From a virus: a stretch of DNA of 64,000 bases. The notes beneath the pieces are model-generated. The model was not told the DNA's origin and made no database searches. It was given only the letters and a program-made list of their open reading frames with translations. Made by a program: the position numbers and the translations under genes. Shown piece by piece: positions 8,145 to 14,435 of the stretch (positions are counted from its first letter, which is position 1; each line of letters begins with the position of its first letter). The stretch is from positions 9,817 to 73,816 of the IMG/VR virus record IMGVR_UViG_3300017971_000272; one strand, written 5' to 3'.

Positions 8145-8323
8145 AATTCCTCTTCTTTTTCTATCACTCCATTTAATTGATATTGAATCTCTACCGTTCC
8201 ATTTAGTTCGTTAATCTGTTGTATTTCCCCTTGCAATGGATACTCTATTATCACGGATTCAATAGGTCCGATACTTTTTACCTTGGACTGAATGCCTTTA
8301 GTCATTATCCCTATACTTGCCAT
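8141..8323 (-). CDS. Small hypothetical protein
   Basis: Start/stop overlaps with both neighbours. Confidence 0.6.
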   Translation of the reverse strand: MASIGIMTKGIQSKVKSIGPIESVIIEYPLQGEIQQINELNGTVEIQYQLNGVIEKEEEL

Positions 8324-10137
8324 TATTGCCTCACTGTTCTATAGGATTGCATAACACCTGCAAGTTCAGTAGCTGATACAGTGAATTCCTCTATTACATC
8401 ATTATCAGTTCCTACACTTGCAGGATTAGAATATATTCTAATCCTTGCTGAAGTCACTACTTCATTACTATATACTATTTGATCAATAGACATGTTTTCA
8501 TATAAAGATACTACAGTTGGAACCATTGTAGTATTAACTATATTACTATCATAAAACACAGATAAATAATTAGGTTGATATCCATCTTTATCTATAATCA
8601 CAGAATAAGAAGGAACTTGATAGGGAAAAGTATAATCAAATGGAGAATTAACAGTTTTCCATCCCGTACCATCTCCAGGATTAAATTGTATCTGAGGTAA
8701 ATGATTTCCCCTTCTATCCATCACATTAAAAGTAACTTGATGAGCTGAAACAGTCACTGTTAAACTATCTTCGCTTGTAGCTCCTTCATTATCTTCAACC
8801 TGTAATCTCGTAGTGATAACACCAATATTACTATACAAATAAGTAAATGCCTGTACAGCCTCTAATAATGTAGCATATCCATTAATAGGAATCTCAGTCC
8901 ATATATCTACTTCGCCATCAACCTTATATCTTGCTACATCAACTGTACCATCAGGATCATTAAAAGAAGCATCTGAAAATGGAGATATTGTGCCATGATC
9001 AAGTGTATTTTTATTACTGCCAGCATCCACTATAGGACTTAAATTAGATGTGTAAAGTATCTGTATTTCATCCAGTTGAATAGCTTGATTCCCATTACTA
9101 ATAAAGAAAGTTTTAACCCATATATCTCCTACTGGAAAAAGATCTATGTTGATGTTTACTGTATTCTCATTGTTATAATTAGCTCCAGCAGAAACCCAAG
9201 CAGATCCATCAAAATACAACCAATCAGATCCATTGGAAGATAGTTGAAATCCTAAACTCCCTTCCAATACACCTGTTGTAACAGTGAAGCCATCCCATAC
9301 ATTAACTGTTCCTGATTCACCTGTAGTTTTATAAATGCTTGGCTCATCGTCACTGTAAAAGCTTTGTTCTGTTCCATTTCCAGCATTATATAAGTGAGCT
9401 ATTTCATTTGTTGTCAATACTCTATCATATATAACTAATTCATCTATTTCTCCTCCCCAATGATTAGTTACATTATTTCTTGATCCAATAGAGCACGAAT
9501 TAGAAACTAACATACTTTGTGTTAAATTATCATTATCAACAGTAACATCTCTCACAGTACCATCTACTGTAAAAACAATACCACTTGCTAATGAACTCCC
9601 ATCATAAGTAACAACAGCATGATGCCAATTACCATCTCTAAATGTTTCATTTGTTGTTACAGATACAACATTGCCGGATAACCCACCTGCTAAATATAAT
9701 CGCAATGCTGCACTTTTCATATCAAAGATCCATCCTTGAGCAGCTCCTATAGTATTAACTTTACTAATCAAAGTCATAGGTGTTTGTATTGTAGAGGATT
9801 TAAACCATATAGATATAGAAAAGGACTGATCTCTTTCAAAATTACAAATATTACCAAGATCAACTCTTTCATTTTGTGCTCTTACAAAAGATAAACAATT
9901 GTTTAATTTACCAGTAATCCAATTGGAATCATCCATGTTTTGAGTTGTTCCATTCCTATTATTACCTGAATCATCTGGAACAGTACTGCCAGAACTCTCA
10001 TTAAAATGATAACGAGCATAGCAGTTTCTAAGATCCTCTATCAGGGAGGCAAATCCACCAGAAACTTCTATTTGATTATTGTCAAAATTATAGTTACCTG
10101 GAACATCAAAAGGTATCGAAAAAACCGCCATGCTCAA
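8323..10137 (-). CDS. LamG/concanavalin-like and PKD-like domain virion protein
   Basis: ARYHFNESSG...DDSGNNRNGT, FSISIWFK, DGNWHHAVVTYDG, GEIDELVIYDRVLT (LamG); PIVDAG...DPDG...LQVEDNEGATSEDSLTVTV (PKD-like). Confidence 0.85.
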   Translation of the reverse strand: MSMAVFSIPFDVPGNYNFDNNQIEVSGGFASLIEDLRNCYARYHFNESSGSTVPDDSGNNRNGTTQNMDDSNWITGKLNNCLSFVRAQNERVDLGNICNFERDQSFSISIWFKSSTIQTPMTLISKVNTIGAAQGWIFDMKSAALRLYLAGGLSGNVVSVTTNETFRDGNWHHAVVTYDGSSLASGIVFTVDGTVRDVTVDNDNLTQSMLVSNSCSIGSRNNVTNHWGGEIDELVIYDRVLTTNEIAHLYNAGNGTEQSFYSDDEPSIYKTTGESGTVNVWDGFTVTTGVLEGSLGFQLSSNGSDWLYFDGSAWVSAGANYNNENTVNINIDLFPVGDIWVKTFFISNGNQAIQLDEIQILYTSNLSPIVDAGSNKNTLDHGTISPFSDASFNDPDGTVDVARYKVDGEVDIWTEIPINGYATLLEAVQAFTYLYSNIGVITTRLQVEDNEGATSEDSLTVTVSAHQVTFNVMDRRGNHLPQIQFNPGDGTGWKTVNSPFDYTFPYQVPSYSVIIDKDGYQPNYLSVFYDSNIVNTTMVPTVVSLYENMSIDQIVYSNEVVTSARIRIYSNPASVGTDNDVIEEFTVSATELAGVMQSYRTVRQ

Positions 10138-10142
10138 ACTCC

Positions 10143-10601
10143 TTATTTGTTACCTGTTATCCATGATAAATATTTGCTCTTTTTACCAGATTTTTCAGCG
10201 CTCCGACCAACAGCGTATACACTACATACGCTTGTCCATGCCCACCAAAATTCTTCAGGCAAAACAAGCTGTGGTGTTTTTTCAGATGTATAAAATGTTA
10301 AGATTGGAAAAAGAACGTGTACTAAGAAAATGAAAAATAAACCAGCATACACAATGCTTGGTCTTGCTCGTTTAGTGTAATCATCTCCTTGTTGTAATTC
10401 AGCAACAATGATTTCTTTTTGTGCTGTTACTATTGTTGCTTCTCTTTGAGACAGCATTTTTTCAAGTTCAGCAGTAACTCTTAACTTTTCCTCTGGACTT
10501 GCTGCTTTAGGCCAAAATCTATCCATAATGGAATCAGCAAAGTCCTTTACACTTGAAATAGTCTGCCCAATGCCTGAAAAATCTTTAATATCAAGAGCCA
10601 T
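10143..10601 (-). CDS. Holin (3TM/GTA-holin-like)
   Basis: IIVAELQQGDDYTKRARPSIVY, transmembrane segment, WTSVCSVYAVGRSAEK; near lysozyme. Confidence 0.8.
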   Translation of the reverse strand: MALDIKDFSGIGQTISSVKDFADSIMDRFWPKAASPEEKLRVTAELEKMLSQREATIVTAQKEIIVAELQQGDDYTKRARPSIVYAGLFFIFLVHVLFPILTFYTSEKTPQLVLPEEFWWAWTSVCSVYAVGRSAEKSGKKSKYLSWITGNK

Positions 10602-11060: not shown

Positions 11061-11471
11061 CTATCCATTTCTTAACATGTCTGCTATTCTTTCATAGCGT
11101 CTTGGCAAATCCCTTGCTGCTTTGGAATCAAGACATTCATTTGCAGCACTGATCCAGTCATTATTATGGATAGCAGCAATTAATTTTTTAAATCCTCTAA
11201 ATCTAACAGGACCTAAATTAAATCTCATGTTAATTAATGCATGTTTACATTTTTTTGGAAAAATATCATATTCTACAAAAATAACTTTTAAATCCTTCTC
11301 ACATTCCACGATATCATTTTGTAGAAGCATCATAGCTTCTTTTTTGCTGATCCCTTTTCCATCACTATCAATATTGCGCCCAATCCCTATAGTTAGTTTA
11401 CCTGCTGGACATTTATACGCTTTTAATCTTAATCCCTCATCCTTAATCAATTCTTGTATAATTTCTTCCAT
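11061..11471 (-). CDS. Endolysin, T4-like lysozyme (GH24)
   Basis: DEGLRLKAYKCPAGKLTIGIGRN (E-x8-C-x5-T triad), ALINMRFNLG, AANECLDS; RBS AGGAGG. Confidence 0.92.
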   Translation of the reverse strand: MEEIIQELIKDEGLRLKAYKCPAGKLTIGIGRNIDSDGKGISKKEAMMLLQNDIVECEKDLKVIFVEYDIFPKKCKHALINMRFNLGPVRFRGFKKLIAAIHNNDWISAANECLDSKAARDLPRRYERIADMLRNG

Positions 11472-11976: not shown

Positions 11977-12019
11977 GCAGAGTCAGTAAAGATAAATAAG
12001 TTAATTTCACTGACTCTGC
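11977..12019 (-). terminator. Hairpin just after the stop of the read-through extension
   Basis: GCAGAGTCAGT...ACTGACTCTGC, 11-bp arms; weak U-tract. Confidence 0.45.
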
Positions 12020-12023
12020 ATAT

Positions 12024-12566
12024 TTACTCACTATTAACAGTTTCCTCAGAATCAGTTTCATCAGTTGTTGTATCTGCGACAACCGGAGGAGGTTCACATG
12101 GACCCTCAGTATCTCCATGAGCTAAGTGAATAGCAGCCTCTTCAGGGGATACAGTTATGGTTTCAGGTGTTCCAGAAGCATTACAACATACATCTACAGT
12201 TTCCGGTTCACATGCTCCTAATGTATCACCATGAGAAACGTGAATATCTGCTACAGCAGGATCACATTGAATGGTTTCACCATTACAGCATACTTCTACT
12301 TGTTCACAAGGACCCAAGGTATCACCATGATTATAATGTCCCGGTAAAGCGGAGCATGGAACTTCGAGAGTTTGTCCATTATGGCAAATCTCAATTTTTT
12401 CATCTCCGCCATTTCCTCCACCAGTATCATTATCTCCACAATTGTTAGTACAGTTAACAGTTACATTTACACCATCATCAGTAGAGCCTCCGTGACATCC
12501 GTGACGTCTACCGTTTCCGTTCCCATTATCGCCGTGATTATGGGAGTTTTGGGAACGTCCGCCGTT
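12024..12566 (-). CDS. In-frame extension beyond UGA with three C(H/C)N...H..HGDT.G.CE repeats
   Basis: 180 open codons in the same frame as 12567..13397; no ATG/GTG/TTG before the end of repeat 1. Confidence 0.7.
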   Translation of the reverse strand, partial: NGGRSQNSHNHGDNGNGNGRRHGCHGGSTDDGVNVTVNCTNNCGDNDTGGGNGGDEKIEICHNGQTLEVPCSALPGHYNHGDTLGPCEQVEVCCNGETIQCDPAVADIHVSHGDTLGACEPETVDVCCNASGTPETITVSPEEAAIHLAHGDTEGPCEPPPVVADTTTDETDSEETVNSE

Positions 12567-13397
12567 TCAAGGATGATGGGGATGACAAGGACGACAACAG
12601 CCCGTAGTACATCCACAAGCTACCTGAGTTTTAAGAGCCGTCAACTCTGCATTAGCAGCATTCAATTGACGTTCAATGTTTCTACTCTCAACAGCCTTGA
12701 TTTCAGCAAGGATCTGTGATTTATCTTCACAAGCTTGACGTTCAACAGCAGCAAACTTCAAATTGTTTCCTGCTTCAAGAGCCAAGATTTGTTTTTGAGT
12801 TTCACAACAACATTCTTGATTTCTAAGCTGTGCCTCAAGATTAAGAACTTTATTGTCACAGCAGCAATCAGCAAGTTGTTGACGAATATCAGCATTATCA
12901 CGCAAAGCATTAATTTGCTGTGCATCCAGTTTATCAGCAGTTCTCAATTCTGCACGAAATTGACCATCACGAAGATCAGTGAATTGGCGATCTCTGGTAG
13001 CATTTTCAAAAGCTTGGAGAGTGCCAATATTTCCAGCTTGGATCATATCACGAGTACAGTCTGCTTGATTTTCAATCTGTTGTGCATTACGATTCAAGCG
13101 AACAGCATTAGCAGAAGGAGAAGCCCAAGGACCAAATCCTCCACCTCCCCAACCACCTCCCCAAGCACCTCCACCACCTCCATAACCATAACCACCACGT
13201 CCATAACCTCCAGCAAGAAGCCCACCAACAGCAATTTCAGTTGCATTTAAACTTGAAGTATTATCCATTTGATTACCTCCCGATTGATTATTATAATTCG
13301 AATTATTAGGATTATTAGGATTAGTATAAGCTTTTGGACTAATGGGAGGATTATTCATCCCATGTCCATGATTCATCTTATCATTTGTAGTAGCCAT
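12567..13397 (-). CDS. Gly-rich, CCC-motif coiled-coil protein (second in-frame start at 13268)
   Basis: GGYG...GGGWGG tract, ADCCCD and ECCCET motifs, Cys/His-rich C-terminus; GGAGGT SD 6 nt before ATG 13268. Confidence 0.8.
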   Translation of the reverse strand: MATTNDKMNHGHGMNNPPISPKAYTNPNNPNNSNYNNQSGGNQMDNTSSLNATEIAVGGLLAGGYGRGGYGYGGGGGAWGGGWGGGGFGPWASPSANAVRLNRNAQQIENQADCTRDMIQAGNIGTLQAFENATRDRQFTDLRDGQFRAELRTADKLDAQQINALRDNADIRQQLADCCCDNKVLNLEAQLRNQECCCETQKQILALEAGNNLKFAAVERQACEDKSQILAEIKAVESRNIERQLNAANAELTALKTQVACGCTTGCCRPCHPHHP

Positions 13398-13463
13398 TTT
13401 CAGTTCAACTCCAATAATCGGTTTATGGTAAAGTACTTTAATCAGTATACCGACATTTGTTTT

Positions 13464-13475
13464 TTATTTGTCCAT
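13464..13475 (-). other. Minigene Met-Asp-Lys-stop behind an extended SD
   Basis: AAAGGAGGTGAT-ACCA-ATG GAC AAA TAA. Confidence 0.55.
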
Positions 13476-13502
13476 TGGTATCACCTCCTTTCCTATACAA
13501 TT

Positions 13503-14054
13503 TTATATCATGTTTTTAATGCTGGATATATAAGGAGTGGCTTGTGTAGCCAAATATGATTCTCCCAATTCTTCAATTAAACTATCAACTTTATCAAAAT
13601 ACTCAAAATGACGTTGTTCATCCTTTAACAACTTTTCAAATATTTCAGCAGAAATAGAATCCATATTCTCTCTGCATGTTACTAAATATTCATTATAACT
13701 TTCTATGGCTTTCTTTTCTACTTCAGCATCAAACTCAAATATACAGCATGGTTTTTCATGTTTTTCTATTCTATCAAAATCATAAAAATCTGTTGGTTCA
13801 CATAGTAGATTTTTAATTCTGTTAGCTATCATATCAGCGTGATGCATTTCCTCTATAGCTATTTCCTTAACTTGTTCAGCAAGTTTACTATATCCAATAA
13901 ATTCTAATTGAGTATGATGTTTTAAATATTGATTAATGGAATATAATTCTTTACTACGTGCTAAATTTAAAACATGCACTACAGGATCTATCAAGCAGCT
14001 TTCCTCCCTGCCTTCTTCCTGATCTTCTATTTTTTCATTTTCCATATCATTCAT
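13503..14054 (-). CDS. bfr: Bacterioferritin
   Basis: ELYSINQY, EEMHH (ferroxidase E/H plus haem-ligand Met), EKKAIESY, DEQRH, LGESYLA. Confidence 0.92.
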   Translation of the reverse strand: MNDMENEKIEDQEEGREESCLIDPVVHVLNLARSKELYSINQYLKHHTQLEFIGYSKLAEQVKEIAIEEMHHADMIANRIKNLLCEPTDFYDFDRIEKHEKPCCIFEFDAEVEKKAIESYNEYLVTCRENMDSISAEIFEKLLKDEQRHFEYFDKVDSLIEELGESYLATQATPYISSIKNMI

Positions 14055-14078: not shown

Positions 14079-14435
14079 TCATCTCAACAAAGCACCCACA
14101 GCTACTTCAGTTGCTCCTATAGAAGCGCTCTCATCATATCCTGAATTATCATGAGTTCTATAATGATGATGGGTGTCATTATCTTCAAAAGCCTTTTCAA
14201 GTACAAAATTAAATGGATGATCCGCCATTTCCATAGCTGAATTCCAATTTAATATTTGCACCGCTCTTTCCATAATCTTTCTTTGTCCATCAAGAATATT
14301 CCATACATCTCTGTATGTAATATTTTCATGGGTACTTAAATGTTTAACATATTCTCTTGCCATATACTCCACATCATGATATCCAAGTTTTCTTGGATTC
14401 ATTATCCATTCTTGTAAAACAGTATCACAGCTCAT
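14079..14435 (-). CDS. Hypothetical His-rich protein
   Basis: ORF with RBS AAGGAG; C-terminal GATEVAVGALL. Confidence 0.7.
   Translation of the reverse strand: MSCDTVLQEWIMNPRKLGYHDVEYMAREYVKHLSTHENITYRDVWNILDGQRKIMERAVQILNWNSAMEMADHPFNFVLEKAFEDNDTHHHYRTHDNSGYDESASIGATEVAVGALLR

Follow-up and report, generated by a model that had tools for sequence, protein, structure and literature searches.

Comparative evidence pointing to programmed UGA read-through, which would add a Cys/His domain to a tailed-phage protein

Examples of programmed stop-codon read-through in the literature that we searched come from RNA viruses and from Q-beta (Qubevirus), where a leaky UGA-A ends the abundant short coat protein and read-through adds the C-terminal domain of A1, both forms being made from one gene at a set ratio. 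In tailed phages, C-terminal domains are added by frameshifting, as in the 10A/10B proteins of T3/T7 and the Ig-like domains of Lactobacillus phage A2 and Listeria phages A118, A500 and PSA, and the phage cases in the part of the review consulted are frameshifting or in-frame fusion, with none of read-through (PMC5009743). A full-text literature search turned up no tailed phage for which an extension by read-through had been reported. Here we examine a gene, named the CCC gene after the CCC motifs of its product, in a 64-kb stretch (the window) of the 73.8-kb IMG/VR virus record IMGVR_UViG_3300017971_000272, which derives from an uncultured tailed dsDNA phage of ~74 kb from marine sediment. 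The gene ends at a TGA behind which the frame stays open through three Cys/His repeats, and comparison with related loci makes it likely that this UGA is read through in a programmed manner, giving a short and a long isoform.

The CCC gene encodes a glycine-rich helical-hairpin protein with CCC motifs and the C-terminus ...CCRPCHPHHP (the coordinates of its features are collected in Table 1). Behind its TGA, 180 sense codons (12566..12027) precede the next in-frame stop, a run that has a chance of ~1e-5 at this composition; read in either of the other two frames, these nucleotides contain stops, 8 in one frame and 32 in the other. The first in-frame ATG, GTG or TTG past the TGA is TTG 12317, codon 84 of the extension, leaving 83 codons that lack a canonical start, and the window extension contains no in-frame ATG at all. 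The original prediction, made from the letters of this DNA, had described the in-frame TGA-A, the 180 open codons, the three repeats and TTG 12317, and each of these statements holds. Between the TGA and the first repeat lies a linker with a DDGVNVTVN-type stretch (DD.VNV.VN...) common to homologues. Gene callers had reported a 97-aa fragment at the extension.

Related loci were taken from viral and metagenome contigs and fall into three classes. In the first, made up of the window and L003, L006, L008, L011, L012, L030 and L033, 51-180 open codons with the domain inside follow the CCC gene in frame, and the linkers between stop and domain (13-85 codons) are open in that frame in 8/8 loci, the other frames holding stops. 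The loci of the second class (L005, L009, L013, L002, L017, L021 and L019) have no extension and end the CCC gene with TAA (four loci), TAG (one), TGA-T (one) or TGA-G (one); L021, the sole locus added by a QADCTR pattern search (a GFGxCYDD pattern search added nothing), is a complete genome with the domain nowhere in it. In the third class (L018, L029 and L035), the CCC gene stops at TAG in all three and the same linker and domain lie in the -1 frame, overlapping the 3' end of the gene. The original prediction had hung its reading on whether homologues keep the TGA or carry a sense codon; TGA ends the CCC gene in all eight loci with an in-frame extension, compared with 2/10 of the other loci (one-sided exact p ~0.001). 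On the poorly resolved family tree, the read-through label takes six changes for eight rows. Because the read-through loci are scattered on this tree, and because two close relatives, L012 with TGA and an extension and L005 with TAA and none, differ in just this respect, the association between TGA and extension is, as far as these sequences tell, not due to shared ancestry alone.

Direct fusions of the two parts were sought from both sides: a hidden Markov model (HMM) of the domain matched 0/120 family proteins, the family HMM matched 0/150 domain representatives, and neither TGT/TGC nor any other sense codon was found at the stop site in 19 loci. This lack of sense-codon variants implies that termination, too, has been selected. 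The codons behind the stop are under purifying selection as well, judged by the proportions of synonymous (pS) and non-synonymous (pN) differences. Between L006 and L011, the first 13 extension codons, which precede any ATG, give a pS of 1.0 and a pN of 0.24, and the other frames contain stops and have pS below pN; repeat 1 of the window, upstream of TTG 12317, gives a pS of 1.0 and a pN of 0.20 against L018, and 0.86 and 0.24 against L008. Since selected codons precede the available starts, and since the extensions of the window, L030 and L033 are free of in-frame ATGs, separate initiation cannot account for the conserved parts. The loci thus have in common a conserved TGA followed by an in-frame, selected extension with no start of its own. 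With TGA in 8/8 loci, no fusions and selection after the TGA, the production of short and long isoforms by UGA recoding is well supported by the comparison, in agreement with the programmed read-through that had originally been proposed; near-cognate decoding, the ratio of the isoforms and the role of the product are what we infer from this arrangement.

The short form is a complete protein by itself. Among 5.8 billion proteins, a word-indexed search picked out 122 CCC-family relatives of 157-290 aa, none of which carries a C-terminal domain. In their alignments, a nearly invariant Met (the window's ATG 13268) and the conserved N-terminal peptide LNATEIAVGSLL are accompanied by a Gly-rich stretch, an invariant CCC motif and Cys/His/Pro-rich tails that end at the position of the window's TGA. 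The protein begins with a disordered N-terminus, followed by the ATEIAVGGLL peptide as a short helix and by a Gly-rich segment; then comes a long helical hairpin, antiparallel and with two CCC motifs, ahead of the Cys/His/Pro tail. The AlphaFold2 model built on 114 sequences places the helices at residues 94-167 and 169-260 with a predicted local distance difference test (pLDDT) score of 79. Profile searches of Pfam, PHROG and NCBIfam found no family for the CCC protein or for the extension, a Foldseek comparison with the PDB and BFVD gave nothing significant for the CCC-protein model or the domain model, neither scanning cellular genomes for the CCC family nor single-protein scans of viral contigs added anything, and a full-text literature search found no report of the family.

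Two in-frame starts, ATG 13397 and ATG 13268, had been taken to allow up to four products. Both are present; ATG 13397 has only a distant GGAG, and ATG 13268 (Met44) has GGAGG 7 nt upstream and corresponds to the family's nearly invariant start Met, which makes 13268 the probable start of the main product and weakens the four-product idea. Between the ferritin-like gene upstream and the CCC gene there is also a three-codon mini-open reading frame, ATG GAC AAA TAA (13475..13464, minus strand), which follows a perfect AAGGAGGTGA (region 13464-13490) and may act as a leader or as a site for loading ribosomes.

Two of the loci in the -1 frame class, L018 and L035, have the heptamer C_CCC_CCT in common, two codons before the zero-frame TAG (L018:839-856; L035 ~2474-2489), and are candidates for -1 frameshifting; L029 (2246-2315) has no clean slippery heptamer. 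Alternatively, these loci may owe their arrangement to polymerase slippage or to a homopolymer error, which would yield a direct fusion. The window's own extension is in frame and not in -1, so no -1 frameshift arrangement exists there. Because all three loci hold the linker and domain in the -1 frame, the types of recoding appear to be interchangeable for the same product, and what is conserved would be partial access to the domain and not a particular residue at the junction.

The original prediction had placed two alternative hairpins just 3' of the UGA. Both can be drawn in the window, and they are neither unusual nor conserved across the family: the window fold has a minimum free energy of -16.7 kcal/mol (z = -1.5), a stability reached by 20/200 dinucleotide shuffles, and the 60 nt after the TGA in the eight loci have a mean z of -1.3 against such shuffles. 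L008, L030 and L033 give a strong fold signal and L006 and L011 none, and L012 has no notable structure. Directly after the UGA, over about 75-80 nt, L008, L030 and L033 align without gaps, and RNAalifold draws a three-way junction from 4 nt past the UGA, the first hairpin of which begins 12-13 nt beyond the UGA, its stem of 7-9 bp being capped by a 7-nt loop in which G, A and U are invariant (G.A..U). The element contains an invariant CGCCGGGAGCG, and the peptide encoded by the element is not conserved. Compensatory changes occur in 12/23 pairs and 91% of cells are paired, compared with 42-49% in slid controls and matched by 0/500 shuffles, figures that come from three sequences, the same three from which the structure was derived. 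Covariation of this kind was seen only in these three loci: the covariance model built from them (R1) matches only its source loci and misses the window, an RNA-motif pattern scan found no further members (its new matches were weak, seeded by the pattern and devoid of the UGA), and Rfam has no SECIS (selenocysteine insertion sequence) or other family at the site, nor an entry for the subgroup element. Since covarying RNA is present in this subgroup and none is matched in the window, structure may matter in the subgroup, and for the window it is unproven.

Taking these observations together, we favour programmed near-cognate read-through as the likely mechanism. Most ribosomes would stop at the UGA-A and yield the short CCC protein, and a minority would insert an amino acid at the UGA, most likely Trp from a near-cognate tRNA by analogy with Q-beta A1, and continue for 180 codons. 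The long form would consist of the short protein, a flexible linker, an acidic tail and, between these two, three small beta-beta-alpha Cys/His domains, a type that elsewhere occurs in secreted and surface proteins, so that one gene would supply plain and domain-bearing subunits at a fixed ratio. The base after the TGA in the eight in-frame loci is A, A, A, G, G, C, C and G, never T; UGA-U is the strongest UGA context in Escherichia coli. The residue just before the stop is Pro, Ser or His in most loci, and a C-terminal Pro slows termination by release factor 2 (RF2).

Several points weigh against this reading. The argument for recoding is built on sequence comparison, and the leakiness of UGA, known elsewhere, may not hold in the phage's host. 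The survey at the DNA level covers ~19 of roughly 120 family members and does not include the closest relatives of the window, P0002 and P0003. Beyond the rule that TGA is not followed by T, no read-through context is conserved across the loci, and the window hairpin is not statistically significant. Finally, an ATG precedes the first Cys of the domain by one or two codons in five homologues, and a shorter product could start there independently.

Recoding might also be specific and driven by RNA structure and not a passive leak, with the RNA of the L008, L030 and L033 subgroup recruiting SelB or acting as a bacterial read-through stimulator; we regard this as a tentative possibility, on the unlikely side. 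The RNA would then tune the share of subunits carrying Cys/His domains in a ferritin-linked, metal-binding module. Structured RNA stimulators of read-through have so far come mainly from eukaryotic viruses. If the subgroup RNA does recruit SelB, these loci would be candidates for a phage selenoprotein, of which we know none, no literature search having been aimed at one.

Insertion of selenocysteine (Sec), by Sec-tRNA delivered by host SelB on the downstream hairpin, would place the residue within a His/Cys-rich metal-binding segment and had been offered from the outset as another way of decoding the UGA. The codon does lie between His/Cys-rich stretches in all loci, and in L008, L030 and L033 the hairpin 12-13 nt past the UGA has a 7-nt loop led by an invariant G ~21 nt from the UGA, which is compatible with the rule for bacterial SECIS elements (a small apical loop with a leading G, 16-37 nt after the UGA). 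The Desulfobacteraceae, which are rich in Sec, also have the domain. Families of selenoproteins, however, normally have many Cys homologues, and no Cys codon (TGT/TGC) occupies the site in any locus or database protein. Moreover, the UGA falls exactly at the ancestral stop of a family with a complete short form, and in three loci the same extension is reached by a change to the -1 frame, with no special residue at the junction. Neither window loop (ACGGC; 24 nt) has the leading G, so the suspicion that the window fits the SECIS consensus poorly was correct, L006, L011 and L012 have no notable structure, and the failure of R1 to find the window is accompanied by the absence of a Rfam SECIS match and of a Sec tRNA in the phage. 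Left with no positive support in the window, Sec insertion is improbable.

Still less probable is that the domains belong to a separate gene, started at a non-canonical codon or by termination-reinitiation, with their in-frame placement incidental. A candidate start exists in the window (ATT 12395, with GGAG 8 nt upstream), the ATG before the first domain Cys in five homologues could serve likewise, small stand-alone proteins have been called from such stretches (P0123, P0233 and P0168), and tightly packed genes are in frame by chance in one case out of three. This would leave unexplained the exclusive use of TGA and the linkers that stay open in frame in 8/8 loci while other frames hold stops, and protein-level conservation of the linkers begins at the second codon past the TGA. 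No in-frame ATG is on offer in the window, L030 or L033, and the hydrophobic residue or Met that precedes the Cys is part of the repeat consensus, present in internal repeats too. That the TGA is a nonsense mutation or an assembly error in an originally fused gene, as might be feared of a single metagenome-derived genome whose only two matching public runs may be its own source, is hardly credible, given the same TGA in eight divergent loci from different samples, the lack of an intact fused relative among 120 family and 150 domain representatives, the agreement of independent ~18x contigs with the window and the purifying selection on the extension.

Turning from the junction to the extension itself, sequence relatives and a confident predicted fold indicate that the domain it encodes is real. 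Searched exhaustively with HMMER, 1.84 billion representatives yielded 408 matches (75 below 1e-10), some of them proteins as long as 1000-2900 aa in which the repeat occurs up to 22 times. The domain spans ~35 aa with the consensus [IVM]C[HC].G.T..V...A...H..HGD..G.C, of which C, T, H, H, G, D, G and C are invariant, and every repeat is modelled by AlphaFold2 as beta-beta-alpha (pLDDT ~95). It is found fused once to a type IX secretion system (T9SS) PorP/SprF domain and once to an outer-membrane barrel, and in viral and cellular contigs it also occurs behind signal peptides and lipoprotein signals. It is spread so widely, over many bacterial phyla and some archaea, that its distribution suggests no particular host. 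No Pfam model was found for the domain and no PDB fold matches it significantly; a VIA-align match of the domain model to small ribosomal-protein domains (Z ~3) was treated as no match. The domain-bearing set comprises proteins P0121-P0270 and loci L034, L037, L039, L040, L042 and L061-L139.

The CCC gene adjoins a gene for a ferritin-like protein, and such a neighbour was found in 7/7 other loci tested, upstream of the CCC gene in some and downstream in others, so that the two appear to form a conserved two-gene phage module. From the ferritin neighbour, the CCC motifs, the His-rich tails and a domain with invariant C, H, H, D and C, we suggest that the CCC protein probably works with the ferritin-like protein as a metal- or surface-binding module, in which a minority of the helical-hairpin subunits would display Cys/His domains. 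Upstream of the ferritin gene, a 118-aa protein ends ...IGATEVAVGALLR (14079-14120, minus strand), and the CCC protein holds LNATEIAVGGLLAGG near its conserved start (13210-13250, minus strand; a predicted short helix, residues 52-61); the two may be a shared docking peptide.

Table 1. Positions of the CCC gene, its putative read-through extension, RNA elements and neighbouring genes; plain numbers refer to the window, and numbers behind a locus name to that locus.
Feature	Position	Strand	Remarks
CCC gene (short isoform)	12570..13397	-	276 aa from ATG 13397; 233 aa from ATG 13268
Putatively recoded stop TGA (UGA-A)	12567..12569	-	Preceded by His-His-Pro; where extension-less family members end
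Predicted read-through linker	12399..12566	-	56 codons, Gly/Asn/His-rich; no ATG, GTG or TTG
Repeat 1 of C..T..H..HGD..G.C domain	12303..12398	-	Upstream of TTG 12317; AlphaFold2 beta-beta-alpha, pLDDT ~95
Repeat 2 of C..T..H..HGD..G.C domain	12207..12302	-	Translation and AlphaFold2 model
Repeat 3 of C..T..H..HGD..G.C domain	12093..12206	-	Translation and AlphaFold2 model
Acidic Pro/Thr/Asp/Glu tail of predicted long isoform, with TAA stop (12026..12024)	12024..12092	-	
Stem-loop	12518..12557	-	9 nt after TGA; 8-bp stem CGTTCCCA (12557..12550) / TGGGAACG (12525..12518), 24-nt loop
Alternative hairpin	12545..12521	-	Loop ACGGC, 22 nt after UGA
Covarying RNA element	L008:3472-3555; L030:2264-2347; L033:2255-2338		Directly after UGA, about 75-80 nt
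Ferritin-like gene	13503..14054	-	Pfam PF00210, E = 8e-19; adjoins CCC gene
Ferritin-like genes, other loci	L029:945-1505; L018:1333-1842; L003:3954-4475; L006:4232-4732		
Ferritin-like genes, other loci	L030:2674-3219; L033:3011-3514; L035:2796-3374		L030 just under Pfam cut-off
LamG-type fibre protein	8323..10137		Lysis cassette
Holin	10143..10601		Lysis cassette
Phage lysozyme	11061..11471		Lysis cassette

The window has a composition of ~32% G+C and carries most of its genes on the minus strand, and the record from which it is taken has a completeness estimate of 88%. The CCC gene sits in the late region, with structural genes on one side and the lysis cassette on the other. Over 12000..13400 the window is matched without a difference by contigs (~18x) of two public runs, from sediment and seawater metagenomes, which may be its own source sample. 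A DNA search of public phage genomes with the window gave no match, and an atlas search gave a single weak lead (score 0.80, Bacteroidota commonest). About 100 open reading frames tile the genome under translation table 11, in which Trp is TGG, as it is in the CCC gene. TGA terminates 16/67 long open reading frames in the window, usually with only 0-16 open codons beyond, and no tRNA genes, for Sec or otherwise, were found in the window or the whole record. An alternative genetic code or a suppressor tRNA was therefore rejected, TGA ending many ordinary genes, Trp being TGG and tRNA genes being absent.

The comparison points to a phage family with selected UGA read-through, recognised from eight independent loci, the lack of fusions and the selection on the extension. 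Gene callers systematically miss extensions of this kind. The case is compact, the cassette measuring ~140 nt, and it defines an unannotated and widespread Cys/His mini-domain; the module of CCC and ferritin-like proteins may bear on phage-metal interactions.

Among known systems, phages with stop-codon reassignment, in which TAG or TGA is recoded in late genes, often with suppressor tRNAs, resemble this locus in having an in-frame stop inside a late coding region, and differ in that a single gene is affected here, TGA ends many others and there are no tRNA genes. Bacterial selenoprotein genes such as E. coli fdhF share with it an in-frame UGA, a stem-loop within ~10 nt and a Cys/His-rich context, and the covarying hairpin with a G-leading loop in L008, L030 and L033 adds to the likeness; unlike them, the CCC family has no Cys homologues, the UGA is its natural stop, the hairpin is not family-wide and the window loop is unfit. 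The frameshift extensions of tailed phages likewise put a mobile accessory domain on a fraction of the copies by recoding at the end of a gene, and relatives use different types of recoding or none, as in the CCC family, where L018, L029 and L035 have the domain in the -1 frame. In the window and seven other loci, however, the domain is not Ig-like and lies in frame behind a UGA, so the event would be stop-codon read-through. The scheme is also that of the coat/A1 gene of Q-beta, although that is a small single-stranded RNA phage with an unrelated protein family, in which read-through was shown experimentally, and the present gene belongs to a tailed dsDNA phage known from its sequence, in which the added part consists of three Cys/His mini-domains.

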